A DNA stretch of 64,000 nt, taken from the NCBI GenBank assembly GCA_010093605.1, contig MU004195.1:434001-498000 (forward strand). Direction: 5' to 3'. A model generated the notes under the pieces. The model saw only the letters and a list, made by a program, of their open reading frames with translations. It was not told where the DNA came from and searched no databases. This stretch comes from Lophium mytilinum (Eukaryota). The position numbers and the translations under genes were made by a program. Below are positions 6,301 through 41,179 of this stretch, one piece after another. The number at the start of each line of letters is the position of its first letter. Position 1 is the stretch's first letter.

Positions 6301-6530
6301 TGACGCATAGTATGTGCTATGCGTACGGCCGGGCGACGAAGGCGGTGAGTTTGTGTCCGCCGGCGTACTATGCTGATATTGTGTGCGAACGCGCGCGCTG
6401 CTATCTGAATGATGTTTTTGAGGGGTCGACGGATTCGGGGGCGGTTTCGGTGGCGGGGAGTGAAGCGCTGGTGGGGAATGCGGATGTGCTGATTCATCCG
6501 AGGTTGAGGGATGGTATGTTCTATATCTGA
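3371..6530 (+). CDS. qde-2: Argonaute, QDE-2-like (RGG N-terminus, N/PAZ/MID/PIWI)
   Basis: Exons 3371-3519, 3571-4721, 4772-5019, 5067-6530 with GT-AG introns that join in frame. Motifs: RPGYGTRG, NVALKFNLKLGG, GIDVTHP, YRDGVSEGQ, VGKRHHTRFF, QGTARPAHY, PPAYYAD. Confidence 0.96.
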
Positions 6531-9229: not shown

Positions 9230-10558
9230 CACGTGTAGTTTCAATCTTCCCGTGACCTAGCTTTGTCATCCTGGATCCGGAGTCTATAACTCCCTGCCCT
9301 TTGCCAACCTTTCATTCTTCGTGGTGGAAAAGAAGTCGGACTGGAGATTGCAACAAAGTTATTCCCTCTCCCCATGGCCTTGCAAAACACAGGATGAATT
9401 CCGTCAATGGCTGGATCTGGTGCTCGGTGTTCAATCTTCTTTATTGAGGTTTTTATTGGCGTTGAGAGTGGACTATCAACACATCTCATTCTCCAACACG
9501 ATGAAGTCGGCAGAGGGCTTATCCTTGATCGGTAAAGGTTGCATCGAGATGGTTAGCATCACTTCCCCATGAGGCCGAAGAGATTGACTCCCATACAGCC
9601 ATACTCCAGCTTCAATCGCTCGAGATGACTATCTCAAACTCTATGTGGCTACTATCCTCGCTTTCTTAGAAAGAAGCTCGCCATCATCACACTACCTAGC
9701 GTACCACCGCAACCTTCTTCCAGCTCCATCGGCAGTTTTCGTTCCTGTTATTGACACCCCCTACTCCCCCAACTCCTCCTTCAAACGCTACGCTATTGAG
9801 GTTGACACGCCCTCCAAGTGTTCATCTGGTCCTATGTGTTGCTCCAGCTCCAGCTCCATAAAACGGGCGCCTCGATGAGTTGAACCACCACAGCCCACCC
9901 ACACCCCATAGCAGCTGGGATAGTTTGTTGATGTTTGAACCTCCTCCATGTATTAGAGTCTTTCAGGGTTTTCTTTGGACCCACCACACCTCCCCTCCCC
10001 ATGTCGAAGAGAGGGCAAGCAGTTCTGAGCCTCCTCCATTCGAAACTAACAGAGCATCTTTTGACCCACCACACAACCACCCCATCATAAACTTCTCTCC
10101 AAGGGTCTGAACCTTCTCCATTCCGATGGTTGCCAGCTTGCGTTCGATCCACACCTCCCACCCCGTGGCTTTTAAACCTGCGATGGTTTTGCGCATCTTC
10201 CATGAAATTCTTTTTTTAGATTGTTGCAAGACTGCACCGCACCTCCCACTCCATCGAAACTGTGGTTTGCTTGTTTTGAACCTCCATGGATTTCCCACTG
10301 TGGCTTTTCGATCCCACCCCTCCCCCACGCCACGATCCTCCCACTCCATCCAGAGTTATTACCATCGAATTTGATCCTCCATCCGGTTCCAAGAGTGACA
10401 ATTTCGATCCACCACTCCCCCATCGAGCCCATGAAGCTGGCATTGCAACTTTTTTGATCCCCGAACCCCCAATCCTCCTTCCTCTGAAGAATTGACCTTG
10501 CAGCTACCAGGCGAGCCTTTATACCCCCTACCAAAGAAAAATATCTAGCTGCCACGTG
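9230..10558. repeat. Cassette cluster 1: one + and one - promoter/repeat-spacer cassette, convergent; the - cassette has ~17 spacers
   Basis: + cassette: CACGTG 9230, TATAA 9285. - cassette: CACGTG 10553-58, TATAAA 10523-18. On the + strand the array reads as repeated CCAT-N22-27-(T)TGAxC plus a C-rich linker from ~9726 to 10459. Confidence 0.85.
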
Positions 10559-11507
10559 GCGCACATGCCGTTCCCTCCGCACGACCACGTTCCCCTCACT
10601 CACCGCCTCTCCTACCTCCATCACAAGTCACCGACCACATCACGCGTCACAGACCACATCACGCATCACTCAATCCAACCCCAAACTCCTTGATTCCCGC
10701 ACCCATCGCATTCCTATCTAAACACACCCTACAGTTACACCCCCATCCACCCCCAAACCCCCCGCTTCCCTCACCACACGCACATCCCCCCCACCACATC
10801 GCCAGAGCATTCCAGCATCTGACTCCGCAGCAAAGAGTCCTAGCACGCACGACAAAAGCTATCGACTCCAGAGAGCTAGCAGCAGGTAGAGGCACCAATC
10901 AGGAAAGAAAGTATTATGCAAAGAAAACCGCCCCGCTCAGAAACTCTCAATTCGTCTCATCGCTCAAAAACCCCGCTCATTAAAGAAAGAAGAGAGACCA
11001 GACCAACTTTTCCCCCGTGCATCGCTTCCGTAATCCCCGCTTCCGTTCGTTTGTAGGATAACAAACGTTAGACCGGTAATTAAAGCCCTCCCGCTATGCC
11101 AAATCCCAGCCCTCCGTTGCCAAAAAGACCCATCATCGATCATGAGTGCTCGAAAAGGAAATTCGTTTCGTACCGGGGGTTTGCAAGGCCATGTGTCGGT
11201 CGGTCGGGAGTCAAGGAAGTATGCAAGGTAGCAGTCGGCCAGTCACCAGAAAAGAAAAGTGTGTGCAAAAGACAAAATGAAAAGAGAATCCTTACGCTTA
11301 TGCAAAGAAGCTTCCGCTCGAGGCGAGAAGTATGCTTCCCGTGCAAATCATTCACACTTCATCCGCTGTGCGAAGTCTCAGCCGGCATTTTTCAGCGCGA
11401 CTGTGACCAACACCCGCAAGAAGCCATTCTGATCCCATCCCCATTACCACTCCGTCGATTCTCCCCTCGTGCTTTTGGTAGTGTTGTAGTGAAGAAACAC
11501 CCAGCTC

Positions 11508-14500
11508 TCAACGTCCCACGTTCCTGCCGCCCGTAGCCAACCGGTTGAAGTCATTCACCCTGTTAGCCAGCGCCAAGATCTTCCTCAGCACCGCTTGGCC
11601 AGGGCCCCTCGGCGTATTGAACGAGTGGTACGCAGTCGTAAGCCTCTCCGTGAGGAGCTGCATGATTCTCGGAACCACGTCAGCCTGAAGATCCGGGTCC
11701 TGCGGGTTAACGCTATCCAAGACGGCCTCTAGCCAGGTAAGCCGCTCGACGATGAGATTGTGGAATGGGTCGGTCACGACGACTGCAGATGACAGAGCGT
11801 ATAGGGCCGAGACGTGGGCGAGGTAGTCAGGGTTGCATCGGCAGAATATGGACTCAAAAAGGGCCGGTGGATTCGATGAGCGAATCCACTATGCATGTTA
11901 ACGGAGGCAGTGAACGATATATGGGGGATTACTTACCATCGATGTTGCTTCGCTGAAGTCGCCTAGTTGCAACAGCCTAGTGATTTCGTCCTCGGTCTCC
12001 TCGAGAGAGCTCCTCGGGGTCTGAGATTGGGCCTGAGACTTAGTGGGCGACAGTTCCGTGCGGGGAGCGGAGGTGGACGCAGAGCCAGGGCCACCAGCGT
12101 ACGAGTGTTGCGCCTCTTCAGCGGTCCTAAGCATGCTCATTTGGAAGCTCTCCTGGGAAGCAGCCATGGATTGTACCGTCCCAGTGAGCCCTTGCACGAG
12201 CTTTGTGAGCTGCTCAACCTTTTGGGTCTCCTTCTGGCGCTGAAGGTTGGCGTCGCGCAACTGCTCAGCGAACCGGTTATCCATCACCTGAGTGAGATTG
12301 TTCAGCGCCGGGCCCAGTGCGACAGAGAGCGAAGACGTGACAGTTGCTTCGAAATTCGCTGTGACCTTCTTCGAAACAGCATCCGAAATCTTGCCGAGGA
12401 ACTGCGGATTCTGGATCTGATTCTGCAGAATTACGCTGAGAGATGGGAGAACCGCCTGGAGTTCGCCTGGAAGAGTGCCCGAGATGGCTTTCTTCAGCGT
12501 CTGCTGGAGTTCCTTGTTGATAGTCTCGTTCACCGAGTCAAGCAGCTTCGGCAAAACGGTTGTCTGTACAGACTTCGTGATGATTTCATTGAAGCTTCGC
12601 TCAACATTCTGCGAGAGTGTTTCGGAAACCAGGCGGAGAATGGCCTCTTGCTTGGCATTACCGGCCGCCACGTGAGCGCGATTGTCGATATCAATGCGCT
12701 TGTGAAGCGCCTCTACCTCCTTGGTTAAAGTCTTCGAAAACTCCGCAGAGATATTTTCTTCGAGCTTCTTCACATCCGGCGGGGCAATTGCAGAGCTAAC
12801 AGGTGTAGACTGCTGCAGAACTTGGCTGAGCAGTCGGGTGGCCCATTCCGGAGCCTCTGTTTCTGAAGCTTTTGATCGAGAGTTGTCGGAAGACTGCGGC
12901 AGGATAGAAGGCGAGCTAGCGCTCTGTGCTGCTTGAGCATACGACGCGGAGGAAGACGTGACAGTTGATTCCTTGGCCTTGGCACTGGCCTGGGAGCCTT
13001 CAGTGTTCGATTTGTCCTTCTTCTTCTTTTTCTTCTCTAGCTTTTCAGGAAGCTTTTCAGGGCCATTGATAATCGCAGCCCGAGCAGCGTCCTGCTTGCT
13101 CTCCACCTTCGCCAAAGTAGAAGCCCTCATTGCAGCTTCTGATGTAAGCGACTGGCGAGTTGCTGCGCTACTCTCTTTCTTGATGCTCTCGCGAGCTGAT
13201 CGATCAGACCCTGGCTTGCGAGCTGACGTTTCACCGGCAGCCGAAGTATCCTCGCTAGCAGAAGACAATTCGATCTGCTTGATGGTACCAACAACAGCAA
13301 CACCAGCCTTCTCCGCATCAACGGGATACAAAGCTTCGCCGTCGTTCTTCCATCCAAGATCTGCCTGTCGAACAGCTACCACACTGACACCCTTGGACTG
13401 CATGACATACAACTCAAAACGAGGCTTGTCTTGAGGCTTGGCGTCATCCGGTGCAGAGCTGACTGGGTCGTTGAGCATCTGAAGACTACGGAGCTGGCCC
13501 TTGGAGGAGAAGGAGTACTCGTGAATGCTGGTCATGATTGCGGTTGCGTTCACGGCCGGTAGGGGCCTAATGCTAGGCTCCTTCTTCGCCAGCTGCGAGA
13601 TGTATGATGCCTGGGAGAAGGGCTGCAGATTGTAACGCGGGCAAGACACGTGGATGAAGAAGACGGAGTTCCTAGTAGGATGTCCAACGGCCAAAATCCC
13701 TGTCTTGGGGTGGAAAGAGACACTGCAAATGGCGTCCGACTCCTTCTCGTGTGGAAGATTGATTTCCTGAACAGGCTTTCCGAGACCGAGGTCCCATAGC
13801 TGGAAGGAGTGATTCTGCTTCATACCCACCATGACATATCTCAACGCAATGCCCTTGGCGCACGGGCGCTCCTTGTCGAAGAAGAAGATGGATGTGGGCC
13901 ACGATTTGACGTTAGTAGACGTAGTGTGATGCTCCGTGATCGGTTCGCGGATTTCAACAGGGTCGATCTCTATTGTGGAGTTTCCGAGGTGCTCCAAGGT
14001 CAGCGGACGAATGTCCCAGAAGCGCATCCTGCCGGCCTTATCCAGGGATGCAATGACTGTATCATCCTCACTGAAGGCGAAGTCCTTGCCCGCCTTGCCA
14101 GTCAATATCTTGAGAGGGCGATCCTTGAGGTAGGCCTCGGTGTTGCAAATCTGAGTGTCCGGATCCGTGTATCTCGGCGAGCGTGCGACGTTAGGAAAGA
14201 TGATGTGAATCGCCTTTCCACGGCCAACAGCGAAGAACTCGGGGTGTCGGCAGCTAGGCTTGGCGCGCGTCTTCAGTTGTCCACCAGATGTGTTATCATC
14301 TTGGGTAGCGGCAGGTGGAAAGATGACGCTGTGGCCAGGGAGGAGTTCAATAACGTCATCCTTGGTGTTCACAGCAGTCCAAAAGACCGCTCCATTGACA
14401 CCAATCCCAAGGATGGTCTCCGGAGTCCCCTGCGATGAAGCAAGGTCGGCAGAAGGAGCGGAGCAGGTGGCAAGATTGAAGATGCGCTCTTTGTAGTTCT

Positions 14501-16237
14501 GAAACACCTGTCGGTACTGGCCGTTATCCTGGCGAATGATCCGGAAACCATTGGTCTTGCCGCCGAGAGCATAGACAATGTAAAGCTTGGTGGCGGTGAC
14601 CAGGCAACGATCAATCTGATCGAATTCCTTCTTCAACCTCGCAACGTCCATGAAAGCCGACGGACGGAAGGAAGGACCCGACAAACTCTTGTTGACCGTG
14701 ATGGCGGCGAACGCTCTCATGGGGAATTTGAAAACTTGGATCTGCTGTTCTTCATCCTTGGCCGGGCTATCTTCAGCTTCCGCGCTCTCCCAGCTGTCCA
14801 CAACGTCCGCGTCACCGAGGTCAGCCTGGGCGACTTCTTCGACCACCTCTTTCAAGGCATCGGCCATTGGTTTCGGCAAAGTCTCTTCGATGTCGTGGCG
14901 AGTCTCGGGATCATCCAACTCCTTCTTGATTGAGATTGCTGCCTCCTTCATGGCCATCTCAAGTTCCTCGACTTCTTTCGCTTCAGCATTGGCCTTGTCA
15001 TGACCGTTTGACTGTTTGTCCGCTTGTGCAAGGGCTTCCTCCACTTGCTTGTCGACTTGTTCGCCGATGCCACTCACGGCCTCGGAAACCGTCTCGTGCG
15101 GATTTTGAGTAGGGAAGTGCGAAGTCGCACCCGGTGAAATCTTGCGGGTCTTCGAGGCGGGACCCGAGACTTCGGATCCGTTCTCTTTGCCGTCTCCTCC
15201 CGACGAGGCATCCCTGCCATGCTTTGGCTTCAGTATTTCCATCTTGCGGGTCGGCGCGGCGGCGCTGGTGCGATCGGGCAGAGGGGTGCGATTGCGAGGC
15301 GACGCGGCGTTGTTGGCGCGCTCGGGGACGGGAGTGCGGTTGCGAGGCGTCGCAGCCGAAAGCTGCTCGAAAGGATTGACGTAAGTGAACATCGAGGGCT
15401 TGGGAGGCGCCTGAGGAGCTTCGAAAGTCGAGTCGCCGGTCTTGCTGTCACCGAAAACGCGGATGGGCAATTCGGTGTCTCCACCTGCAGGTCCAGAAGA
15501 GAACGTCTCCAGCTTCGCGTCTTCCAAATCGTGGGCAAGATCGTCGACCCGTGTAGCGGAGGAGGCAAGAAAGGCCGAGACCGGTATTGCGCCTCCACGG
15601 AGGTGAGCAGAAAGTTCGCCCTGGGGAGGTTTGGGGTGGTTGAGCAGTCGCAGCAGCAAGTCCTGGGGAGCTTCATTCGCGGGCGTGGCGTGTTCGGCTC
15701 GAGCGCTGGGCGCGGGTGAGGCAGCAGCCGATGAGCGAGACGCGCCCTGCGACGGCTTGCGCATGAAAGAGGCAACCAAGTCGGAGGCAGAGGTCGTGCG
15801 ACCGTGTGCGCCCTGTCCTTCCGCCATTGACAAGTTCTGCACGGACTGCTGAGATGGTCGGCGCTCCGGGGCGCTGGCCTGATTCAGAGCTCCGGGGCCA
15901 TTGAACCTCAGCAGGTTGAGCAGGCTTGCCGTCTTATCGGAGCTGCTCTGACCAGGAGCTGGCGTGTTATTGACCGAGGTGTTTGGCGACATGACGGCGG
16001 ATTGGTTATGAGGTTGCGGGCCTGAAGGCGCGGGCGAGTAGACGGGCGAGGAAACGGAGGGCTGGTGGTAGTGAGGAGCTTGTCCAGACGTATCTGGCGA
16101 GGTGACTCCCTGCTTCGCAAGGCGCGCAAAGAGCTCTGTAGCAGGTGTTAGCACGGTGAACAAGCGTCGAAGTTCGAAGCTGGATCTATTGAATGAGGCT
16201 GGCTAAAGAAGAGCCATGTACCGTTGAGGTCCGCCAT
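11508..16237 (-). CDS. EDC4/Ge-1/Pdc1-like enhancer of mRNA decapping (P-body scaffold; beta-propeller plus coiled coil)
   Basis: Exons 16237-16222 (MADLN), 16135-11937, 11888-11508. Recalled fungal family motifs DVARLKKEFDQIDR, GGQLKTRAK, HPEFFAVGRGK, GKAGKDFAFSEDD, followed by a long helical C-terminus. Family call is from recall, not a search. Confidence 0.75.
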
Positions 16238-16728
16238 GACACCGGAATTGGCCGGGCCGCCCTTAGAGGATTCGAGTTGGGAGAGATCAGCAGCTGCAAG
16301 TGCACCTGGGCAGCCCGCGATGAAGAGAGGATGGAAGAGTGAGGTGGTGGTTGGTGCAGGTGTGACGTTGGAAATTTTGGAAGAGGTGTTTGGGGGACGA
16401 GATACGGGCCCGTTGGCGTACAATATGTCACGCTAACCGTAAAGAGAGCGGCCACCAGCCTAGCCAATCGGAGCAAAGGGCAATTGATAATGCGGCTCGC
16501 TCGATATCAGCATCGACTTAATGGCAAGATAGATGAAGTGTCAGCGCTCGAGTAATGGAGAGCAACGTTGCTAGGCTTCTCCCGTAGCTGCCCATTAAGC
16601 TTGAGCTATCGGTGATTGGAACAGCCTCCGCACCTGCAAGTGAGAGTCGTCGTTTTTATAGTTTTGAATTCGAAAGCAAGTCTATATACAACAACAAAAG
16701 GATTGCACCCTGAAGACGTGGCAAAAGT

Positions 16729-18928
16729 CTATACTCTCAAGTCCACTCTACCGCTCTGCACTCTCTGACCATCAAACCCAACCCCGATTACCCTGCATTT
16801 GGCACCAGCATCCCTCATTTTATCAACTAGCACGTTGCAAAGGATAAACTCCGTGGCGTATGCCCGGCCTACGTTATCCCCATCTATATCAATTGAGAAA
16901 TACGAGAAAGGGCCAGTGAGCTGGCTGTACGGAAGATGGCGTAGTAGTGAGTGAGATAATCCCAAACTTTGATCTTGAAAGTCCCACACTAGTCGGCGAT
17001 GCTCTTCTTCATCCTTACCTTGATTTTCAACTCGAATATTAACAATCGTGCTAGATAGATGCGGAGTTTCCAGGGGTGCTATAGAGAGCTCGAAGATCTC
17101 AATTGACAATCCGTGATTGTTCATCGTATCCCCTCCCTTCATTGACAGAGATAATTCAGACAAGCGAGGATTTTCGGGTAGACAGTCTGGAAGATGATTC
17201 CTTAAGAGGAGCTGTACAGTCTCCATCCTACCGCTTCCATCGCCGAGATCTACAAACGAGTATTTTGAGCCGATCCTGAGGCCAAGCGTTACGTTCCCAC
17301 TAACCAAATAGTTCTTGTAAGACATCTTAACCTGCAAAGTGCCATCGGCAGGCATATCGACCGTGAAGAGCCGCAGAGGATGTGTAATTCCCTTGGGTTC
17401 GTAGTAAACAGCTAATCGAGACGGTTGGTCGAGAATTTCTCCGTGAAGAGATCTACCCAATTTATGACCCTGGTCTGGGGCTACTTGTCGGTGAACAGAA
17501 TGTGGCAAGACTGACTGCGCGCCAACTTGCGAGTGGACTTTCTTCCCTCCATAGACGTCTTCTAGCTCAGGGCCATGCAACGCAAATGCGCGGCTGAAGT
17601 CGGTGTAGAAGAAGGACTCCGAGCCAGCAGGATACTGACGAGCTGAACGAGTGATGGGATACGGATGTACCTCCTGGACGCCAGAATCTGATCTCCCGCC
17701 GTGCGGTCGGCCATCGCACGTACAATCCAGGTCTTCTGTGAAAGGGTCCCCGTCCCACATAGCGTGCTCAACAGCTCTTCTCTGGGTCGCAAAATGCTCG
17801 AATGACCAAGCTGGTGCAAAAATGCCTACAGAAAGACCGGTCTCGGCGAGTTTGCTTACGGCAATGCCAGTATGCGTGCCGCCGCCGCCCTTCTCGGGAT
17901 ACGTCACTCGAGGGTTGCTCAACTTGGATGAGTTTTGGGCCCAGACGTCCACACCAAAGTAGACGCTCTCAGAAGGGAAGTCGTGTTGCTGAGCGAAAGC
18001 CCTCGATTCGACAGCTTTGTCCTCTGTCCAGCAGTAGTTGGTGAGTATTCCGTCACAACCCTGTGCCATTGGCAGATTTGCGACGGTCAAACTGTTTTGG
18101 TAGACGATCTTGTTCGAAACGGTAAGAGCATCGTACCTATTTGAGATTAGATCTGACAGCAGCAACGGCCTTGCATTGATGTTGAATAATGGAAAGAAGG
18201 CTGTTCAAAACCACTGACCAGATAACTTTGCTCTCGGCACCCATAGTAGATCTCAACTGGTTCAGGAACGACACAAGGAGATTGAGATCCCACTCGCTGT
18301 TATCAAAGGGTTTCTCTATATTAATGAGCCATCCATCAAATCCGTAGTGCTCAGCAATTGCAGCGAGCTTGCTTGCAAATGGGAAATGCAGTTGGAGCCC
18401 CTCCGTATTAACGACGCTGCTATTTTCAAGCATCCTGTTGTTTTCTCTGAGTGCTGGCTCAACGAGGAAAGTCCCGAGCACCTTGACGCCATTCCGATGG
18501 AGCGTATTGGTCCAGGACGGGGGTGGGACGCAGACTAGTTTATGACTGAAATATACAAAAGTATTCACGAATTGGAGATACTCGCATGAGTAGCTTGTTT
18601 CGTCTACGCCTACCCCTTGGCTGGATTCATAGGTATGGTAGTTTCCGCCGTAGTCGTGGCATAAGAGGACATTAGCTGACTGCTCTCCTCCTACAGGGCC
18701 AGGACGCAGTAGGAGAGGTGTATTCGATCTCTGGATAGGATCTGAGGCCTCTGTAGTCCAGTCCTCAAGCTGATTGAAGGTGTCGAAATAGGTGAATCCT
18801 TTAGCAGTGTCTAGCTTCTGTTGTCTGCGCCTCTCTTCTGGCGTTGGCCCAGTGTCTGGGGTGGGGAAGTAATGGCGGAAGCCATCTCGAATAGGTCGAA
18901 GGATGTCTTTCCAACCATATATATTCAT
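16729..18928 (-). CDS. Cytosolic endo-beta-N-acetylglucosaminidase (GH85, ENGase)
   Basis: VLLCHDYGGNY, FVYFSHKLVCVPPPSWTNTLHRNGVKVLGT, YGFDGWLINIE, YDALT, NYCW, YFGVDVW, IFAPAWSFE. One intron at about 18217-18139. Divergent from ERD2. Confidence 0.9.
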
Positions 18929-19191
18929 GTTGAGAAACGGCACTCCATAGTGGTTGACGACCTCTCAAGCCTGCCAGCCATGACGTTTCAAGACTTTAGA
19001 CTGGAGGTTTCATAAATAAGCTAGACATATTTGGTGAAGCGGCGTCATTTGCCTAGCGGCCTCTAAAACGCCCGAGCTCAAACTTCGTGTCGTGTTCTCA
19101 ACTATCTCAAAACACCATCACCTCAGTACAAACGCACGAACTCACGCACAGAGACCTGTCGTATTGAGTCCGCTCGCTCTCCACCGCCATC

Positions 19192-20108
19192 ATGAATCTC
19201 TTCAGGTTATTAGGTACGCGTGCCATGGGCGCAAGGCTGCGATCCACCCTTTCCCACGGTATGCGACAGCTAGCTAACAAAACCACCCAGGGGACCTGTC
19301 CCATTTAATATCAATCCTCATCCTGCTACACAAGATGAAAACATCCAGCGTACATCTTCCCGCCATCCTGATACCCTGCGCACCCCATTGACCCCCCACA
19401 GAGCGCATCCGGCATCTCGTTCAAGTCCCAGGTCCTCTACTTCGTAGTCTACGTAACGCGCTACATCGACCTGCTATGGACCTTCTACCTCCCCAAGAGC
19501 CTCTACAATACTGTTTTCAAAATCCTCTTCATCAGCTCATCCGCCTATACCATCTACCTGATGATGACCGACTACAAGCCCACCCACGATCCGAACCTAG
19601 ACACGTTCAAGGTCTCTTACCTGCTGGGCGCGAGCGCGATATTAGCAATCCTGTTTCCGTACCACTACAACTTCACCGAGGTGAGTTCGAACCTATGTGA
19701 CTCGAAGGACGCAGGGTAGAGCCAGGGCGTACCGCTAACACGCAGCAGATCCTCTGGACCTTCTCCATCTGGCTCGAATCCGTCGCCATCCTCCCGCAAC
19801 TCTTCATGCTGCAGCGGACCGGCGAGGCCGAGACGATCACCACTCATTACCTCTTTGCGCTTGGCGCATACCGGGCGCTGTATATCCCAAATTGGATCTG
19901 GCGCACGGTAGTCGTGGAGAAGCCCACGCCTTTCTGGGATCCGATCTCAATCATTGCGGGCATCGTACAGACGATTCTGTACTCGGATTTTTTCTACATT
20001 TACTATACCAAGTGAGTTGGCGCAGATCCCTGTTGGGGTGTGTCAGGATGCTAATGTTTGCGTTTCGCTAGGGTTATTCAGGGCAAGAAATTCAACCTCC
20101 CAGTGTAA
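19192..20108 (+). CDS. ERD2: ER lumen protein-retaining (HDEL/KDEL) receptor
   Basis: [84 protein letters not shown]. Four short introns. Confidence 0.95.
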
Positions 20109-20975
20109 TCGACCTGCCCGCGCGATTATAGAGATCCTTTATCCTTCACAATTGATCAATGAGCGATTACCCATTTTGTAACATAGATTCGGACACCTGC
20201 TATGTGGCGGATGATTCGGAAGGGGCGGTGGGACTCCGAAGAAGAGCTTATGCGACATTTTCAACGGCGTATCCGGGATACTGGAATGGCAACCAAATTT
20301 GGGCTGACGGAAGAATCCCAGTTAGACTGGGTCGGGACACCCAGGGACTTGGAGCGGATTGGGAATTCGGTGGAACGGTACGGATAAGTACCAGGGGTCG
20401 CGTACCCTAGGAGTTCATGTACTTTACCCAATGGCATCACGAAAAATTCACAAACTCTTTTTGCAGCCCTTTCTGGCTAAAATAATCTTAACAAGTGCTA
20501 TAGCTAGGGCCTCATTACCACCCCAGCAACAGCCTGGAAGTTACAAGCACTGATGCATCGAACATGTACCCACCTAAACTAGCCTACAGAACGTAGCCCT
20601 ATCGTCTTGGGCCGAAACGCGCTCAAATGGTGGAGAAACCTACAGATCGAACCGCGTCACAGCTTTGAGCGGTCCCAACGTGTCCCACTGCGCGCATTAC
20701 AAGTCCTCCCACACAAAGTCGAAGCAAAGCTACCGACTGTCGTAGAGGTCTACCGATCGGCATCAAACATCATGTCAACCTCCCTCTTAAGCACCCTTCG
20801 TCTGCCATCCAACGTCCTCCAATCACCCAAAGCTGACATAGTTCGCCGAAGTGTTCTGAAATCCGCAGACTCAACCGCACTACACCCTCCGGTTCACCTT
20901 GAATGCTTTCCCTGGCGTCCAAGAAGTCGCCAAATCACCCATAAACCTTCTCCTCTCAAGCCCAGTAGGCCATGT

Positions 20976-23170
20976 CACATGTCCATCCCGTGACCTCGGC
21001 TTGGCGGGGGTATAAAACATCTCCGCTGAAGCGACTCGATCCCTTGTCCAGAGGTGGAGGCTGGGGCGGTGGTTTCAACAGAAAACATGGTACACATACA
21101 TGGTCGTCGTTGTGGTTGGATCAAAAATTGCTGACGAGTCCTTCATTATGGCTGGGGGGGGAGTGAAGTGGTGCAACACATGCGTCGCCTTTGGGCAATG
21201 GAGAGGGGGTGTGGTGCGTTAGGTGCGGCGACGGTACCTGTGTTCTCAGTGATTCGAGTCAGCGGTGTCTACCGATGCATCTCTTCCCTTCCGTCCATTG
21301 GTGGTGAGATCGATTGGGGTGAGCAAGCTGGCTGTTAGAGACGATCGTCAACTTGGTTGCATGCTGGATGGCATCATTACACCAGGCAGACACCCCACAA
21401 CATTTACGTTTCTGTAGGATGGTTTTGCACGCCCCAATCCACCCCGATTCACAGGCCCCATCGCCCTCTTTTTTGATCCGGCGCTTCCACTCCCATGGCC
21501 AAGACGTTGTGGAGGTTTTTGTCCCTCAAAGCAAGATCCACAGACTCCTACAGGACGAAGTCTCCGCAACCAACAAGGAGAATTTATAGTACAACCGCAG
21601 GGTAGAACACGTGAAGCGTGAGAACTCAGCCCCGAGACTCCGCCCTCACTCACCAAGCATCGGTTCAGCGTCGTCCGCCAGGGGCGGTCGAGGGAATGGG
21701 GAAAGCACCTGACTCTCACGTGGACCGGGACCTCTATTCTCCCCCGCCGATGGGCAGGTATAAAAGGGCCAGTGCTAGGTGGCCGACCCCTATTTGCTAT
21801 TTGGCCGATGCTGTATTGCTATCTAGCCTACCAACCCCCCTGCGGGCCTTTCACCGCGTTCTGATTGGCTCGGATGGCTCTTAGGAAGGTTCGGATATTT
21901 TACTCTGCACGTGTAGTCTTTCCATTTTATCTACAGTCTTCCTATTTTAGTATAGCTACGTGTATAGCTACTTGCCTACCTATCTACCTGCCTGCCTAGG
22001 AGAATGCCTAAACTGTTAATTTCGCACCTAATAGAGGCCTTCTCTCTATCGCTGCTAGCCTACAAGCACCTACGTAAAGTCCTTATTAATAAGATCTTCC
22101 GCATACTTATTAACTTCCTTAATAGCGGGCTTACGAGCTGCTTTATAAGGCTGCGGCTGGCCTCTGCTCTTTTATTTTATGCTCCGGAGGAGCCGGCCCG
22201 GTAAGCGAGCCAATTAGAACGCGGTGAAAGGTCCGCAGGGGGGTGGGTAGGCTAGATAGCAATACGGCATCGGCTAAGTAGTAAAAAGAGGTCGGCCACC
22301 TAGCACCGGCCTATAAAAGCCCCTCCCCGTCTGAGATTCCTTTTTCAGAGATTGTACGGGTTGGGAGTCAGAAGAGCAACAACGGAGAGAAAGAGCGAGC
22401 ATGCTGCAAAAGAATCCCATGAGATCTCGATGAATGGCTGGTCTGGGATTGCTTTCTTCTGTAACACCTGCAGTGCAAGAGCAGAATGGCTGGCCTTTAA
22501 GCTCTACACCATGCTGATGGCGTCCAACAACCCTAAAGGTACAGGGAAGTCCCACTAGAAACCTTTGCGCATACGCAGCAGCAGGTCGAGGCGACGTCTA
22601 CCATCTACAACAGATGGTGCCATTCAGCGCTCTGCAAATCTCTCTCCGCCAAATCCCGAACGCGCCCATGACATCGTTTGTGTCTCGGTTTTACACCAGA
22701 CCCAGCGACACCATGAAAGGATTCTTTTCTTGCTTTTATATCCCGCCCCCAGAGCCATGACAATGCGTACATATTGGGTTTTGATCCTTGGAAGCACCCC
22801 GAGAGTCGCTGGACAACAAATCTACAGCTGACGAGGCGAAGATTTATAGGAGAATTGGAGAGGACACGTGAGATACATGAGACACGTGAACGGAGCAAGA
22901 TCGCGGGCAAGGAGTTCACGTGGTAGAGCGTTCAGGAACGACCTGGGACTTCACATTCACGTGAACGACCGGGATCCTCAGGAGGTATAAATTCGGCATG
23001 TTCTTCGGTTTGTACCTAGTCTTCATGGGTCGAGAGGTGGGAGATTGTATCCTAGGGGAGTACATCGCGATGATGGAGGCAAAACGGGACAATGCAGCGA
23101 AGAATGGAGGTGTGGATCAAACTGGACGGACCGCATGCCCAATGGCTGCAGTGTTGGTTTTCAGAAGATA
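20976..23170. repeat. Cassette cluster 2: five alternating (+,-,+,-,+) promoter/repeat-spacer cassettes
   Basis: TATA boxes at 21011(+), 21588(-), 21759/22312(+, duplicated by a MITE), 22848(-), 22986(+). CACGTG at 21608, 21717, 22865, 22883, 22917, 22958. 23-nt spacers at 21077-21099, 21175-21197, 23081-23103, 23119-23141. Confidence 0.8.
21767..22311. mobile_element. 545-bp non-autonomous TIR element (MITE) with ~106-bp TIRs and an 8-bp TSD TATAAAAG; Mutator- or hAT-like
   Basis: 21767-21872 is the reverse complement of 22206-22311 with few mismatches. TATAAAAG flanks both ends (21759-66, 22312-19). TpA-rich interior, no transposase ORF. Confidence 0.92.
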
Positions 23171-23505
23171 GGAAGAAATTGGGAAGAGCGTAGATGAGCG
23201 GGAGTTAAACTTAATAGTGGCCTGCGCCACATGCAAGTATAATTAACGGACAACGTTTTGCTTCTATGGTCAGTAGCGAAAACAAGGGCGTTAAGAGGAA
23301 AGGAATGTTAATATTCTGCTAAGCTTCATCAGTGTGCGATGAAAATATGATCGCGATTGACGCGTCAAGCTGTTGGAGCTCGGACCGATGACGTAGGACT
23401 GTTTACATACCGCGCATCACCATCTGGCATCCCACCCTTTCCGTCTCAACTCCAGACCTGTCAATCATTACATTTATACCAGCAGAACTTCCAATACCTC
23501 GCAAG

Positions 23506-24861
23506 ATGCCTCGTACTAAACGTCCACTTGCTGAAGCTGATCCCAATGCCTCCGCTGGCCGGGTGACACGCTCCAAAGTGGTCAGATCCGACGGACCCAA
23601 GGGTAAAGAAAACAAAACGGCGTCAGGGGCGTTTGAAAGCAAGAAGTATAGCAACAAATCGAAATCCTTGACGAAACACGCGGAGAAAGATGTAGGGCTC
23701 GAGGGATACGCCAACGTATCAGACAATCGACTGGGATGGCTCCTACTGGATCGAGGACTTCCCTATGGTAGAACGGACGAAAGGGACGTGATGATCATGC
23801 GTCTCGAGATATCAGATGCACTCGCGAAGGAATTGAACGTACCACTTTATATCCCGCCAAACTTCCCGCCGTCCAAAGCGGACAAGAGCAAGGCCGAGGC
23901 CATCAATCTCAGGAAGCAGACCGATTTTGCCTCCAAGGACAATAGCAAGCTCCGGTCGATGCTAGAAGCCCGCAAGCTGTCTACACTAGGACCACGGGAT
24001 GAGCTAGTTCAGCGCTTGGAGGCGCACCCGATGGTCGACTATGAGCAATACACCACGGATGAGTTATCGGCAATGGCGTCGCGACGACACATGAGAACGG
24101 GCGCCACTGGTCCGAAGGCTGTGAAGATTGCACGTTTGCGCATGAATGACGAACTAAAACGCGATACGGGAAATACGCCAGAAGGTGAATTATATGGCTG
24201 TATATCTGCCATAGAAATGTTTGTAGGCGCGTTTCGGCGAGAGAAAAATAGAGTCCTACGCGGCGACTACTCATTCGTTAAAAGTTTCGGCTGTCGGCCT
24301 GCACCAACTCTCAAGGAGCTTCTACACGAACGCAACTTACCGGAGTCTGGAAATATAGCAACAAAGTTGGAGCGGTTGCGTAAGGACGATGCATCCAGGG
24401 GAACGCCGTTTGCGACACGCATCTTCGAAAAGCAGATCAGCGATGCACGGTCCGAATGGGAGAGATTACGAGTGAAGTTCGAAGAATTTACAGGACGTCC
24501 TCTTCGATGTGTTTCGGAGGATCTAAACGTGGAAAACAAGTTGCATCAACGCGACCCAATCTACAACGCCCCAAAAGATGACCCTCCAGTCAAACACATG
24601 GTTAACTATGACTGGCGCAGTTCGCACTGGGCTGATCGGAGCTTGCATCAGCTGCTGGATATTGCAAAGAGTCGGGGTATGCCACATGCCAATGGAGCAC
24701 CAAAGGCTGCAATGATCAAGTGGCTCGAGACGGGGGAGCTTGACTACGAAGAATACTACACTACAGCCCTTTACGCTATGTGTTCAGAAAGAAACATCAG
24801 CGTCAAATCGGCCGAGAAGTAGGTCGAGATCATTAGACTGCTGAAAGAGCATGAAGACTAG
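23506..24861 (+). CDS. Multi-SAP-like repeat protein; in-frame TAG at 24820-22 interrupts the last repeat
   Basis: Repeated SAP-like helices (LRSMLEARKLSTLGPRDELVQRL; LKELLHERNLPESGNIATKLERL; LYAMCSERNISVKSAEK*VEIIRLL). Confidence 0.65.
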
Positions 24862-25400
24862 CTCACTCTTAGCGCCGGCCATACTCACTTCAAGGATCCG
24901 GAGCAGATTTCAGTGACGTTAAGACCTGGGCACGATGTATTGCGCATGAACAGATCTGTTCTAGAAGAGGCATGATTTATACTAGCCCTGCACGAACCTA
25001 TTTCTATCCGTACAAAGGCTAGCCAGATGCCATTTACTGTCTTCCAACTTACAGTCACGTGACTCATAGAGATTATAGGTTTACAAAATAATTCATCAAT
25101 ATTAAGCTTGATCTCACCGTTCCAGCAAGAAGCACAGCGGCATTCATGTACCGTTCTGCTTCCACAATTGAACTCTCGCGTCGTTTTGAGGTCCTTTGAC
25201 CTTAGCGAAACATTCAAAGTACCCTCCGGCACATTCCAGCCATTAGGGAAGCGGCGCTGCTGTCATCCACAAAAAGAACGCTAAAACGCAAACGCTCACC
25301 ACAAAGTGTCGCAACGTACTCCATCTCATCGGTGTCTGCTTTCCCAATATTTCCTAATTACTATCCTAAAATACAACAAGAACAACGAAGTATCGGCGTT

Positions 25401-37640: not shown

Positions 37641-38182
37641 ACGGCGTGTCTCTCGACTAGCCTGCCACAAACCAGCAACCCTCATCTCCTCCAAGACCTA
37701 CTCGCAGCAGGAGATCGTCCCCACACGGCACTATTTAGAGCTCGTAATATCCGGACAAGTATGCGGATAGTTGAGAAGATACGGACAGCTGGGGAGATGC
37801 GCACAGCTCCGCAAAAGCAGAAAGCGGCAGAAAGACCTCCGTGAAACCACAAGGCGAAGACAGCAGTCAAGTGCACGCGCAAGACCGCAAAACCTTCAAC
37901 TGCCTCCTCAAACGGACTAACAAGGTCAAAAAGGCGCGACATATCAGATCGGCAACAGCGAAAGAAGCTACGAAGCAGTGCGGCAGTAGGGGCAAAGGTG
38001 GGACGGAGGTTAAGAATATAGCGAATGTAAACCAGTGGCATGTCCTAGGTATGTTATTTTCAAACATGGCGTTACCGGCACGATGTATTGTATCTAGGGT
38101 ATGAAGGGATGAATTTCAGGTCCCGTCCATTACCAAAATCAATATCTATACCGGCCACATGTGTTTCCGACCTCGCTTTCAT

Positions 38183-40894
38183 CACGTGTCCCACGTGCCC
38201 TTGCTGCAAATCTCCTATAAAACCCTCTCCTCCCTCGACCAGATTCCTTCTCCATGGGTTCGGTCCTCTCGAGGATCAAAAGAAGATCTCAGGGTACATC
38301 ATGGTGCTGGGGGTGGGAGATCGAAAACTAGGTTTTCAGCATGTGATGGTGGCTGTTGCGGTCTGGGTGTGCAAAATAGCGAAGACACAAGCCATGGAGG
38401 AGCGAGTCGGCGGTGTCTCCAGCCCAGTGATGATGATGTCTCGCAAAAGAGCTAGATGCAGCTTTTCTCCAGCAGCCAATTCGATAAAGGAGAAAGAAGA
38501 GCCCTACGAGTGATGTCGAGCAGCATCGTATAGCAATCGCGAGGAAGCCGGACGCAGGCACCGACTCCACTCGGCCATTTTACGGCTATCCAACTGGTTT
38601 TGCTCACACATGTAAGGTCTGGGCGCATTGACTCCACTCGATCATCAGACACTCGAGGCTATCGTTTTGCTCCCACCATTATTGACCATGTCCGCCGTTT
38701 TTCAAACACCCCATTTCCACGCCTCGACGACGAACTGAAGAGGGGTAAGAGGTGGGAGGTAGAGGTTTTATACCCGCCAGAAGACGTTTGGAGCTTGAGG
38801 GCACGTGGGGACCATGTGCTTTGAGAAATGTAACCGGATGAACGATGTCGTCATGGGCCTATTCGATGCAGAAAGACTGGGAAAGGGGGTTGTCACGTGT
38901 GCCACGTGCACGCCTTCCTGGGACTTCCTATAAAAGCCTCTATGCCTCTCGTCTCGACATCTTCTGCAGCGGGGTAGGCTTCTTTAGGAGGAAAAACGTC
39001 GATGAACTTCAACCATGGTTCTGGCGGTGGGAGATCAAAGCTTAGGGCCAATCACCCCATGGAGGTGTGTTGGGTCTGTGGAGCAGAAGCTGGAAGGCCA
39101 GACTTTCAATGAAGGCGTGTCGGAGTACGCAAAAGCCTGGTGATGACGTGTAGCAAAAAGAGACGACGCCGCTCTGATTCATCCTAGAACGAAAATAGAG
39201 AGGGAAGGTAGTTAGAGATGCTGGAGAGCAGCAGCAGCTCGTAGTAAAGGGGCTGCGACACGCGCTCCCGACCGCCCAGCCATCAATGGCTTGCTCTTCA
39301 ATTTTTGCTCCCCCATGGAAGACATCGTTAAGGAGGTCTTAAATTCACCCTTGCCTCACGTCGAATAGAGAACGAACAACCCCATCAGCGCGATCTTGGG
39401 GTTTTATACCCAGCAGCAGGAAGCCCAAGCGTGACGCTCACGTGCATGTCACCTGCCCACATTCGTATCTTTCGCATCTTACCATGAGAGACCTCCTTCC
39501 AAAAATGCCGTCCAGCAGACCGGTGGGGAGAGCGAAATCACGCGTCCCACGTGCCTCCCACCTCCCACATCCTATAAAACCTCCCCTTCCACGCAGCAAC
39601 TTCTTCTGCAGCGGGCCTTGTTCTTCTCAGAATCAAATATGCTTGAGCGGGATAAGATGGAGGAGGATCAACGATCCCAAGAAACGAGGCCATGGTCCGG
39701 TGGGAGGTCAAAATCATCTACCCGGACTATTATCGTTCGGCGGTGTTCTCGAAAAAAGTTGCTGGGGAGTCCTTACATGGAGGGGTGCGCTGCGGGAGGG
39801 CTGATGGTGGCTAGCAGTATCTAAGGTTGCTGGTGGGGATTAGCAGGGCTAGGAGATAAGAATGAGGAAGTTGAAGGAATAGTGGAGCGCAGCAACGCGA
39901 GGTGGTAAGAAGGTGGACACTCCGCGCGCCCATGGGCAATGTTGGAGCGATGTTTTTGCTCCCACCATGGCACGGCGAGGCGCTACAATCTGTTTTACTC
40001 CCCCGAGTGCACACCTTGTTGAAGCACGGAAGAGAATAGGAGAGCAGAAGAGAGGTTTTATACCCATCAACAGCCAGGCACGCGGTAGGGCTTTGAGACC
40101 ACGTGAGAGCCACGTGCTTCCGCTTACTGCAACCTGCTTTGGTCTGTGCTGCTCAGGTATTCTACATCTTGGGAACGAGCGTGACCGATCACGCGCCTTA
40201 CGTGCCCCCCTTCCCTCCATCTACTATAAAACCCCAACCTCCCTCGCAGAAACTTCTTCTCCAGCGGGATTTGGGTCTCTGGAGGAGCAAAATCGGGCTC
40301 TCCACGCTCGAATGGATCTGGGGTAGAGATTAAACCAACGATCGTTACTGCAGCATGGCTGGAGGCTGTGGGTTGGTGCAAAACAAGTAACACCGGGTGC
40401 CTATGGCCGGGATCGGATTGAACTCGGAAACAGAGAGACGCGATGGAGGAGTGCTTGTAATGTTGTAATAATGGTTAGCATTGTCTATAGGTGTCAGTGG
40501 TCTTCAAAAGCGTTAGAGGGTTGAATGGCGTAAAGAGGATATTGTGGTTTTCGTGTTTACCGAGGGAGGTTTCCAAAGAGTAGATGGAGAGAATGATAGA
40601 CATCATCAGCAGCCTGAGATGGCGATCGGTGACGACGAGCGGATGACGCTGGCTCAGCAACCAGCAACCAGCCACCATGATATCCCATCGCTTGCCTGTT
40701 TGATCCAGCACGCGGGAGTCCTCCATCATTCTTGTCTGGGCGGATTTTGCTCCCCAGCTTCCCACATGCGTCGCCTGGCAGGAACCTTTAGATATCCTCG
40801 GAATTGCCCTTTGATGGACAAAGATCCGAGGGGTGGAAAAGGTCTTATAGCTAGCGGACAACCGATGGGAGGGTCTGTGCTCGGAATGCACGTG
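38183..40894. repeat. Cassette cluster 4: eight alternating promoter/repeat-spacer cassettes
   Basis: TATA at 38216(+), 38772(-), 38929(+), 39408(-), 39573(+), 40062(-), 40225(+), 40849(-). CACGTG at 38183, 38192, 38802, 38894, 38903, 39439, 39548, 40100, 40111, 40889. 23-nt spacers at 38278-38300 and 38323-38345. Confidence 0.88.
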
Positions 40895-41179
40895 CAGGTC
40901 AGGCGGTTCGTGTGTTGAAAACGAAGCATGATGAAAGGCGATACTAGGGTATGGCAAGAACTCGAAATATCGCACGCGGGATTTATGAAAGTTATGAAGA
41001 GATATGTGATTTAGACAAGAATGAAAAAAGTATATATACCACATGCCACCTAGCCATTCCTCGGTTGAGCATATTCAAAACCTGGCCTATATCCAACCAA
41101 CCCACAAACAATGCCCGCTTGCACGTACTCAGCCATCCAACTCGCACGCACAACAACTTCCCAACAAAGAACCCTATCA

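Follow-up and report, generated by a model that had tools for sequence, protein, structure and literature searches.

According to PMC4046813, promoters of Aspergillus nidulans have a CACGTG peak near −70, a TATA box at −45 to −30 and CA at the start site. The window (the whole 64-kb stretch of DNA analysed here) from Lophium mytilinum, a wood-dwelling fungus of the Dothideomycetes, contains 22 homologous intergenic cassettes and one weak candidate, grouped in four clusters (Table 1), and their promoters follow the order CACGTG, TATA and CA given there for A. nidulans, a standard fungal layout. An earlier note on this DNA had cited the milRNAs and disiRNAs of Neurospora as background, which is a different fungus from the present host; no Rfam family or tRNA fits the cassettes, and their layout is unlike that of any known family. 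Our preferred reading, to which we assign a probability of about 0.4, is that they are small non-coding RNA genes transcribed by Pol II and forming a lineage-specific family, known here from one 64-kb window, with a handle-spacer body acting at the RNA level.

All 22 cassettes can be aligned across the E-boxes, TATA, the TTCTNCAG start region, GAGGATCAAAA and CATGGT, which bears out the earlier claim that the four clusters share one grammar; the claimed number of about 23 cassettes stands for 22 firm copies, while the copy at 9230–9410 is weak and was missed by the family profile. This profile, composed of the promoter, leader and first unit of the 22 cassettes, recovered 22/22 when the window was scanned at E < 0.25, since it was built from those same copies, along with inner units of the same arrays, and at this threshold revealed no further family members. 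Judging by the TATA start, 11 cassettes lie on the plus strand and 11 on the minus strand.

The cassette promoter includes a pair of TCACGTG E-boxes, TATAAAA some 35 nt downstream and a pyrimidine-CA initiator-like site about 38 nt past TATA. An exact CACGTG is located no more than 70 nt upstream of TATA in 19/22 cassettes, in agreement with the CACGTG-type box and TATA described earlier; YCA(G/T) is found at +33 to +37 from TATA in 14/22, and the distance from TATA to the first boundary is 62–68 nt in 13/22. The sequence suggests that transcription would start at the pyrimidine-CA, which gives a predicted RNA leader of about 25 nt.

Table 1. Clusters, cassettes, introns and transcript contigs in the window.
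Feature	Position	Strand	Description
Cluster 1	9230..10583		weak plus-strand candidate converging on long minus-strand cassette R10518
Candidate F9285	9230..9410	+	CACGTG 9230, TATAAC 9285; absent from profile matches
F9285 unit-like segments	9352-9373, 9384-9406	+	spacers, ATGG after each
R10518	9840..10583	-	CACGTG 10553, TATA 10523; profile E 1.3e-14
Cluster 2	20951..23286		two convergent pairs and cassette F22986
F21011	20951..21311	+	TATA 21011; 3 parsed units; E 2e-10
R21583	21288..21648	-	TATA 21588; E 3.5e-12
F22312 detached promoter	21700..21766	+	CACGTG 21717, TATAAAAG 21759-21766
F22312 body	22312..22617	+	second TATAAAAG at 22312, leader, degenerate units; E 6.6e-10
R22843	22548..22908	-	TATA 22848; E 4.4e-19
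F22986	22917..23145	+	E-boxes 22917 and 22958, TATA 22986; two units; E 3e-4
F22986 predicted CA initiator	23024-23025	+	
Cluster 3	28489..31489		four convergent pairs; macro-period about 706-800 nt
F28549	28489..28849	+	TATA 28549; E 8.2e-17
R29163	28868..29228	-	TATA 29168; E 1.9e-22; within spliced contig
F29375	29315..29675	+	TATA 29375; E 6.2e-21
R29955	29660..30020	-	TATA 29960; E 1.4e-17
F30122	30062..30422	+	TATA 30122; E 3.7e-14
R30757	30400..30822	-	TATA 30762; E 1.9e-20
F30869	30809..31169	+	TATA variant GTAAAAAG at 30869; E 3e-12
R31424	31148..31489	-	TATA 31429; E 1.9e-17
Cluster 4	38156..40910		four convergent pairs; macro-period 711, 645, 651 nt
F38216	38156..38516	+	TATA 38216; E 4.2e-24
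R38767	38472..38832	-	TATA 38772; E 1.3e-11
F38929	38869..39229	+	TATA 38929; E 1.8e-18
R39403	39108..39468	-	TATA 39408; E 3.5e-10
F39573	39513..39873	+	TATA 39573; E 2.6e-18
R40057	39762..40122	-	TATA 40062; E 1.1e-10
F40225	40165..40525	+	TATA 40225; E 5.7e-23
R40845	40550..40910	-	TATA variant CTATAAGA at 40850; E 1.1e-7
Intron A	29231..29294	-	GTTAGT ... CTGAC ... AG; contig joint 29230>29295 (CT..AC on plus strand)
Intron B	29630..29684	-	GTATTG ... CTGAC ... AG; contig joint 29629>29685
Exon of spliced RNA	29295-29629	-	antisense of F29375
Contig	38229-39110		cluster 4
Contig	23030-27641		joins F22986 to downstream SAP-domain gene
Contig	31148-33378		contains R31424 and aspartyl-protease gene

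The repeated unit consists of ATGG and a G-rich linker ending in GGATC, followed by AAAA and about 19 unconstrained nucleotides. The distance from the C/A boundary to ATGG is 22–24 nt in 43/57 parsed units, with a mode of 23 (24/57), where the parser accepted 18–29 nt only and one of the 57 units is an overlapping artefact; the inter-unit linkers (24 parsed) range from 10 to 40 nt, so the fixed segment of about 23 nt and the variable linker of the earlier description are both upheld. Its rule that units open with AAAA after C (GATC, GTTC or GAGC) is common, but boundaries with G before AAAA exist in F29375, F30122 and F38929, and the closing ATGG is conserved, but in several distal units it has degenerated to ATCG, ACGG or ATGA. 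The pattern GGATCAAAA-N18-20-ATGG was observed 8 times against 0.01 expected from window shuffles, 34/37 matches of a looser unit pattern fall inside the four clusters (15% of the window), and the first ATGG after TC[AG]AA is 22–24 nt away in 20/39 cases inside the clusters vs. 3/52 outside. Under a stricter control, dinucleotide shuffles of the G-rich cassette bodies themselves, C[AG]AA-N18-20-ATGG was found 27 times vs. 1.10 ± 1.04 expected (highest 5 in 500 shuffles) and TC-N22-24-ATGG 30 times vs. 7.5 ± 2.8 (highest 18), so the spacing, for which the earlier note had proposed a shuffle check, is enriched over shuffled G-rich sequence; TC-Nk-ATGG has its maximum at k = 23 (17 cases).

Conservation of the cassettes is mosaic. 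Eight cassettes have two leading units that were parsed; among them, mean pairwise identity vs. the composition-shuffled value is 0.63 vs. 0.49 in the core promoter, 0.57 vs. 0.46 in the leader, 0.62 vs. 0.46 in the linker, 0.47 vs. 0.45 in spacer 1 and 0.42 vs. 0.43 in spacer 2. A comparison of 51 spacers gave 6.72 of about 19 positions alike between cassettes (random 6.64 ± 0.05) and 7.00 within cassettes (random 6.63 ± 0.17). Spacer sequence is near random, while spacer length is held; complex sequence gets fewer indels than G-rich runs, so this length contrast between spacers and linkers is possibly in part mutational. The cassettes probably form a conserved non-coding family under selection.

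Transcript evidence comes from the contigs of one run, which skip GT..AG introns of ordinary genes and give no RNA starts, ends or levels. Clusters 3 and 4 are covered by intron-skipping contigs, and one contig of cluster 3 contains two real minus-strand introns with at least 255 nt flanking on each side; this spliced contig connects the array of R29955 with antisense sequence of F29375 and with the promoter and array of R29163. Intron A excises the stretch separating two back-to-back promoters, and intron B is located just past the R29955 array. Because contigs extend across promoters and adjoining cassettes, transcription is at least partly read-through and does not yield discrete 300-nt units only; since F22986 and R31424 each share a contig with a protein-coding gene, the cassettes could also simply serve as modules of promoters, leaders or UTRs. 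The contig of F22986 begins 5 nt past the predicted initiator, which is compatible with that start and, for a contig, no proof of it.

According to the preferred reading, the family would go back to a single ancestral cassette, duplicated first in inverted and later in tandem arrangement. The predicted RNA would carry the leader of about 25 nt and then G-rich handles (ATGG..GGAGGATC) alternating with 23-nt AAAA-initial segments; it would be non-coding and act as RNA. The handles may be recognition sites for a putative sequence-specific RNA-binding or RNA-cutting factor, which would measure, present or release the segments between them; to our knowledge, no handle-binding protein has been described. 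Such RNA-level action through handle recognition is put forward tentatively, and within it the possibility that long RNAs serve as modular scaffolds or decoys and the possibility that RNAs are cut into 23–27-nt pieces are given roughly even weight.

The first alternative, proposed in the earlier note and in our opinion unlikely, is a guide library, where cuts in the cassette RNAs between GAUC and AAAA and close to CAUGG would release pieces of about 23–27 nt that are loaded into Argonaute as base-pairing guides. Sequence-free segments of 23 ± 1 nt flanked by conserved boundaries have the appearance of measured or guide-type RNAs, a CpA step is present at both boundaries (C before AAAA, and C directly before ATGG in 20/50 units), and the spliced minus-strand RNA is antisense to F29375, making double-stranded RNA possible if F29375 is also expressed. 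The window does contain an Argonaute gene at 3560–6530 (QDE-2-type, 60–69% identity across Pezizomycotina), but it is a widely conserved, housekeeping-type gene, a MARVEL-domain gene lies between it and cluster 1, and the clusters themselves are set apart by about ten housekeeping genes; the claimed adjacency is given little weight, and no PIWI, Dicer or RdRP domains were found among the 29 scanned large ORFs of the window. The precursors form no hairpins (folding z = +0.5 and −0.1), the contig-bridged RNAs are long, spliced and read-through and not discrete polycistrons, and simple phased dicing would miss the boundaries, as the unit periods across arrays (33–70 nt) are not multiples of 21–23. 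All products would share a 5′ A-run or (UC)AAAA, leaving guide positions 2–4 or 2–6 constant; fungal Argonautes prefer 5′-U, which fits only with a cut two bases upstream. Elsewhere in the window, matches to the spacers do not exceed chance, and the spacers of tandem copies, e.g., F38216 and F38929 with a common start of spacer 2 (family D6), resemble freely diverged descendants and not acquired inserts.

A DNA-level or transcription-coupled element, which we hold to be improbable, would consist of bipartite protein-binding sites, with some 19 bp separating GGATCAAAA from CATGG, or of G-rich non-template strands forming R-loops or G-quadruplexes; the cassettes would be regulators or insulators for flanking genes and the RNA a by-product. 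Every cluster lies in a long intergenic gap between ordinary genes, the boundary cores GATC and CATG are both palindromes, and GC skew is positive along the TATA direction in 19/22 bodies (mean 0.19). Bipartite DNA sites typically have fixed half-site spacing, which the cassettes fit. Strict units are oriented with TATA in 27 cases and against it in 0; the cassettes share one ancestor, so this orientation is inherited and is not independent evidence for strand-specific function, and descent alone accounts for it under a DNA-level role too. However, at least four G-runs occur in only 9/24 linkers and four GGG runs in 1/24, R-loops or quadruplexes leave the fixed, non-G-rich 23-nt spacer unexplained, a conserved linker of variable length next to an unconserved spacer of fixed length is the reverse of usual site arrays, and each array keeps a full promoter at a fixed distance.

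Still less probable is a decaying macro-satellite or mobile element with no cellular function, either a 650–800-bp foldback or MITE-like unit with inward promoter-bearing arms or a drifting local tandem duplication. The cassettes do form convergent pairs (479–640 nt from TATA to TATA) with two inverted arms, the pairs are nested in tandem macro-repeats (645–711 nt in cluster 4, about 706–800 nt in cluster 3), the family is limited to 32 kb of the window, and between-copy similarity is low (at best 78% over 81 nt). The arms of a pair, however, are complementary only at promoter motifs, with inverted matches of 18–24 nt, and a transposase, terminal repeats and target duplications were not seen. 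Had neutral decay gone on long enough to make the spacers random, the boundary motifs, TATA, E-boxes and spacer length should have been lost as well, yet all of them persist.

The arrays are non-coding, as had been claimed: no reading frame is kept, GGATCAAAA being read as GSK, DQK or RIK inside single cassettes, the ORFs from unit ATGs (89 cases) have 2–86 codons and no shared product, and the longest ORF in the model of the spliced RNA has 105 codons, with no other above 40. Translated leaders or micropeptides, where ATGG would open translation about 50 nt downstream of the cap in uORF-rich leaders, ribosome decoys or small peptides of the type MV(L)(A/G)V(E/G)DQK, are very improbable. No letter group is better conserved than ATG with G at +4, the canonical 22-nt linker gives an MVLAVEDQ-like peptide in several units, with codon 2 free to vary at its third letter, a real coding gene lies downstream of F22986 in one contig, and splicing extends one ORF to those 105 codons, but linker length differences of 1 and 2 nt break the frame, the ORFs have no common end, position −3 has no purine preference, and the sole match of an array ORF among 48 candidates scored is an ab initio model of the same species.

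Individual copies differ in size and integrity. R10518 carries the longest array, with about 12–14 units ending at about 9840; the annotation places an ab initio 'hypothetical protein' model, P0121, on this cassette. R30757 has five units with periods of 45, 46, 45, 45 and 45 nt, and a MITE insertion separates the body of F22312 from its promoter at 21759.

Reading both strands of the four clusters bears out and sharpens the repeat-spacer grammar described in the earlier note, which had claimed about 23 cassettes; 22 are counted here, with one weak candidate besides. Cassette names give the strand (F, +; R, −) and the approximate position of the TATA box. Read in the TATA direction, a cassette contains one or two E-boxes (consensus TCACGTG-N5-TCACGTGCC), TATAAAA about 25–45 nt downstream of them, a pyrimidine tract whose terminal CAG lies about 38 nt past the TATA and a G-rich leader that ends in GAGGATC; the alignment and a position profile indicate that the leader is followed by units in the order AAAA plus about 19 free letters (the spacer), (Y)CATGG and a G-rich linker, or handle, ending in GGATC, GAGC or GTTC. 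In 19 of the 22 cassettes an exact CACGTG precedes the TATA by at most 70 nt, in 14 a YCA(G/T) stands 33–37 nt after the TATA, and in 13 the first boundary, as parsed, is located 62–68 nt past it. One account of Aspergillus nidulans promoters (PMC4046813) places CACGTG near −70 and TATA between −45 and −30, with CA where transcription starts; judged by its motifs, the putative cassette promoter has this ordinary fungal Pol II layout, so each cassette can be read as a predicted Pol II unit whose transcription would begin at the conserved CA. A profile HMM made of promoter, leader and first unit recovers all 22 cassettes used to build it and, at E<0.25, found no further matches in the 64-kb window beyond inner units of the known arrays; the family, within the window, is therefore confined to 9.2–40.9 kb.

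Coordinates of the cassette clusters and of other features in the window
Feature	Position	Strand	Remark
Cluster 1	9230–10583
Cluster 2	20951–23286
Cluster 3	28489–31489
Cluster 4	38156–40910
Weak candidate cassette	9230–9410
CA-rich tandem repeats	3177–3347		periods 13–33 nt
Argonaute gene	3560–6530		RNA-related
Piwi-domain exon of Argonaute	5067–6530
P0121, public annotation	9840–10460		169 aa; on the R10518 array; introns dodge stop codons
EDC4-like (pdc1) beta-propeller	11898–16202		RNA-related
F21011 unit 2, spacer	21123–21143	+	alike to F39573 unit 4
F39573 unit 4, spacer	39754–39774	+	alike to F21011 unit 2
MITE	21767–22311		545 bp; 106-nt terminal inverted repeats, 91% complementary
8-bp duplication TATAAAAG	21759–21766 and 22312–22319		flanks the MITE
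SAP-domain gene	23392–24822		RNA-related
RAI1-like nuclease	25717–26739		RNA-related
Pieces skipped in cluster 3 RNA	29231–29294 and 29630–29684	−	read as introns
TGATG(A/G)-like motif, examples	38425–38440, 39138–39150, 29588–29600, 31215–31225		array ends
HET-domain gene	59111–61867	−
AT-rich tandem repeats	63300–63700		GC 0.35

The spacing of the units was compared with chance. The pattern GGATCAAAA-N18-20-ATGG was seen 8 times with 0.01 expected and a two-unit pattern 3 times with 0.00 expected, and the four clusters, with 15% of the window's length, hold 34 of the 37 matches to a looser unit pattern. C[AG]AA-N18-20-ATGG occurs 27 times, as against 1.10 ± 1.04 (maximum 5) in 500 dinucleotide-preserving shuffles of the cassette bodies themselves. 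The TC-N23-ATGG spacing, claimed earlier as a feature of the arrays, is enriched over shuffled G-rich sequence, with TC-Nk-ATGG giving a sharp peak at k = 23; inside the clusters, 20 of 39 intervals between TC[AG]AA and the ATGG that follows measure 22–24 nt, compared with 3 of 52 outside. Among the 57 parsed units (one of them an overlapping artefact; the parser took 18–29 nt only), 43 measure 22–24 nt and 24 exactly 23 nt, whereas 24 parsed linkers between successive units range from 10 to 40 nt, a contrast to which more frequent indels in G-runs may contribute.

CRISPR spacers, snoRNA guide regions and piRNA mini-genes join constant parts, recognised by proteins, to a length-fixed variable part, and scaffold RNAs, e.g., the Xist A-repeat, tolerate variable spacers. 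Since these arrays pair protein-recognised constants with a measured variable part, an RNA-level function of handles and spacers is the reading chosen here for the cassettes; by this analogy it is given tentatively, at a probability of about 0.4, a share that splits about evenly between a long RNA of modular build and a precursor that is cut. Pol II would start at the conserved CA and transcribe a leader of about 25 nt ahead of the first boundary; the body would alternate conserved handles with free segments of fixed length; a protein would recognise the constant parts, and the variable part would be measured, presented or released. All 27 strict units are sense and none antisense, an orientation that is inherited and hence not independent evidence for a function at the RNA level. 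Against such a function, two cassettes are embedded in the contigs of coding genes, and no factor binding the handles is known. Should handles and fixed 23-nt spacing prove functional, they would represent a new eukaryotic way to package many short variable RNA segments, in which standard promoters would drive a guide library made without Dicer or else modular regulatory RNA of a new class; the unit boundaries predict exact RNA ends.

The more specific version, in which the spacers would serve as Argonaute guides, is rather unlikely. The Argonaute gene is, by sequence comparison, a conserved QDE-2-type gene: its Piwi-domain exon is 100% identical to a named Lophium mytilinum protein, the next best match is that of Mytilinidion resinicola (85%), and orthologues across Pezizomycotina show 60–69% identity. 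The host belongs to Dothideomycetes, so the Neurospora background invoked in the earlier note serves as an analogy only. The Argonaute gene, described as lying beside the cassettes, is indeed present in the window, but a MARVEL-domain gene stands between it and cluster 1; the four RNA-related genes listed in the table are tied to the cassettes by position alone. Neurospora disiRNA and plant TAS/phasiRNA loci have convergent or antisense transcription over non-coding DNA, and one cassette RNA similarly runs antisense through a partner cassette; such loci, unlike the cassettes, need no internal grammar, and TAS phasing starts at a trigger site and keeps a 21-nt register, whereas the periods of the cassette units are 33–70 nt and not multiples of one register.

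The contigs of run X1, mapped on 20950–40949, skip the GT..AG introns of ordinary genes, so the run derives from spliced RNA; being contigs only, they show what is bridged, not starts, ends, strand or level. Clusters 3 and 4 are covered; cover is absent over most of cluster 2, 40293–40949 and 34290–34956, and nothing is drawn from this absence. One contig has two joints in cluster 3, flanked on either side by no fewer than 255 letters; the skipped pieces have a CTGAC branch site and the ends GTTAGT...AG (after a 1-nt shift allowed by the joint) and GTATTG...AG. The spliced path joins the R29955 array, the antisense of F29375 and, beyond it, the promoter and array of R29163, and the resulting RNA model contains one ORF of 105 codons and no other longer than 40. 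Contig 38229–39110 comprises a convergent pair together with the next promoter and cassette, and the contig of the aspartyl-protease gene reaches 31148, across the promoter and array of R31424. Transcription at the cassettes is thus not confined to neat 300-nt units. Contig 23030–27641 starts 5 nt past the predicted CA initiator of F22986 and continues into the SAP-domain gene, so F22986 may be the promoter and leader of that gene. A DNA-level or transcription-coupled element is considered an unlikely account of the cassettes.

Two loose contig ends (30605 and 31238) are situated exactly on linker/spacer boundaries, and 38784 is a loose end as well; since ordinary genes hold two of the five, such ends are not special to cassettes. 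On the − strand beyond 30605, 18 letters unlike the window are followed by ATGG and a G-rich stretch, making up a well-formed unit whose spacer differs; its source could be a paralogous copy at another genomic site, recombination inside linkers, a template switch in library preparation or an artefact of assembly.

Non-functional repeats in drift would leave a promoter-plus-leader module strongly kept while the body randomises, and several features of the copies bear on this reading. Convergent pairs have TATA-to-TATA distances of 479–640 nt, adjacent pairs stand back to back with the E-box region in common, and each F+R pair amounts to a single period of a tandem macro-repeat, which measures 711, 645 and 651 nt in cluster 4 and about 706–800 nt in cluster 3. 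Judged by their alignments, the copies are old; no two of them match better than 78% over 81 nt, similarity is restricted to promoter, leader and first unit, and matches across clusters are as good as those within clusters. Mean pairwise identities, calculated against composition-shuffled sequences for the eight cassettes with two leading units parsed, are 0.63 vs. 0.49 for the core promoter, 0.57 vs. 0.46 for the leader and 0.62 vs. 0.46 for the first linker, but 0.47 vs. 0.45 for spacer 1 and 0.42 vs. 0.43 for spacer 2. The segments had been called unique, and this holds in so far as the mutual similarity of 51 spacers barely exceeds that of shuffles, but not throughout: one spacer is common to F21011 and F39573 (18 of 21 letters alike, 18 kb apart). 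Apart from this pair, comparison of the spacers with the window gave chance-level matches only. The first ten letters are common to spacer 2 of F38216 and F38929, and the first spacer of R10518 starts similarly to the one of the F21011/F39573 pair. Owing to this surviving positional homology, the spacers in tandem copies seem to have diverged freely by descent and not to be acquired inserts. Sequence is randomised, yet length, boundary motifs and promoters are kept, which is the main argument for selection and leaves drift alone distinctly unlikely.

Among known systems, CRISPR arrays of bacteria and archaea share with the cassettes a promoter-bearing leader, conserved repeats alternating with sequence-free spacers of fixed length and greatest regularity in the leader-proximal units. 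Unlike them, the cassettes reside in a eukaryote, an ascomycete, where a Pfam search of 29 large ORFs gave ordinary fungal genes only and no cas-like genes; their repeats are G-rich, non-palindromic, 10–40 nt long and 0.62 identical on average, the 22 arrays are short (1–14 units) with a promoter each, and the spacers of tandem cassettes look diverged by descent rather than acquired. Eukaryotic repeat-spacer guides, i.e., promoter-driven, hairpin-free precursors cut by a nuclease and loaded into an effector independently of Dicer, with about 60 encoded guides, appear improbable. In such a system, a handle-recognising nuclease would cut at the GAUC|AAAA and CAUGG boundaries, RNAs of 23–27 nt would load into the QDE-2-type Argonaute or another effector, and the boundary-exact contig ends entering a different spacer would represent module exchange between arrays.

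Returning to the broader RNA-level reading, other families offer partial parallels. The 21U-RNA (piRNA) mini-genes of C. elegans, marked by the Ruby motif, are many tiny promoter-bearing units in one chromosome region; like the cassettes, they are clustered small promoter units with an upstream motif and then a short, sequence-free product of fixed length, but one cassette TATA promoter serves several units, and the products here are predicted. Fungi are not known to have a PIWI protein. Xist A-repeat, NORAD and fission-yeast meiRNA are long non-coding RNAs of tandem protein-binding modules; these and the cassettes have in common non-coding Pol II transcription, repeated conserved cores with unconserved spacers, splicing and read-through, but each of the former is a single gene with spacers of variable length, whereas the cassettes fix spacer length and form a family of many copies arranged as convergent pairs. 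Box C/D snoRNA genes and polycistronic clusters are likewise independent Pol II units with a TATA, in which variable guide segments of bounded length adjoin short conserved boxes, and a TGATG-like motif follows many cassette arrays; the cassettes differ in having no C/D box pairs or terminal stems, and their units are too short and too many. A TGATG(A/G)-like motif, reminiscent of snoRNA box C, ends most arrays, with no accompanying box D, terminal stem or Rfam match at the cassette tails. A metagenome scan with a two-unit pattern, which matches the window 7 times, gave 90 stretches, all ranked by unit count; five of the top-ranked ones, which were examined, comprised four bacterial-type intergenic repeats and one array of GATCAAAAATTGATCC sites, and the CACGTG-TATA-unit grammar was found in none of the 90. 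The literature search found no description of such cassettes. The cassettes fail the defining features of each family put to the test and are rated as lying outside known kinds, with a predicted function and a family so far from one 32-kb region of one species.

Translation-related readings are highly improbable, as the arrays, claimed earlier to be non-coding, change frame from unit to unit, have stops in all frames and give ORFs of no constant length (2–86 codons from unit ATGs, 89 cases). A Kex2-processed repeat peptide precursor or coding repeat gene was rejected because no single open frame runs through the repeats, and a GW-rich Argonaute-hook protein would likewise be without one. A protein search with an array ORF matched only the same species' ab initio, multi-intron "hypothetical protein" model and no relatives; none were found for P0121 among 48 candidates scored. 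P0121 is Trp/Gly-rich solely because G-rich linkers are read as TGG/GGN, a warning that at least one "hypothetical protein" model was built on an array.

A milRNA or hairpin precursor was rejected, two cassette RNAs folding like shuffles (z = +0.52 and −0.11). Rfam gave no match in the window at the gathering score and, at E≤5 in clusters 3 and 4, one sub-threshold match (archaeal sR38, 14.2 bits vs. a threshold of 50); a snoRNA cluster of box C/D or H/ACA type was discarded for want of a curated covariance model match, box pairs or a terminal stem. ARAGORN found zero tRNA genes in the window; the boundary GGATC(A/G)AA, which resembles a B box only loosely, has A in place of the conserved T of TFIIIC B boxes, and the motif reads ATCAAAA, not the ATCAAAG of TCF/HMG sites. 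Tiny introns within linkers do not fit contigs that are unspliced there, nor do tandem poly(A) or pause sites, since an ordinary-gene contig ends in an AU-rich, not a G-rich, context. Tandem Repeats Finder reported no array at the cassette places. As to a classical TIR, MITE or foldback element, the pair arms have just 18–24-nt promoter motifs in common, in contrast to the long arms and duplication of the genuine MITE in the same region. This MITE is inserted exactly in the TATA box of cassette F22312, with E-box and TATA cut off from the body; 8-bp duplications are typical of hAT-type elements.

The genes between the clusters are EDC4-like, GH85, SAP-domain, RAI1-like, NmrA-like, aspartyl protease and RFC subunit genes, and F22986 stands directly upstream of the SAP-domain gene, on the same contig. 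The CA-rich repeats just upstream of the Argonaute coding region are probably in its promoter or leader. The HET-domain (heterokaryon incompatibility) gene is a large one, and the TATATA-type tandem repeats at the window's right end may mark where a repeat-rich or RIP-affected region begins.
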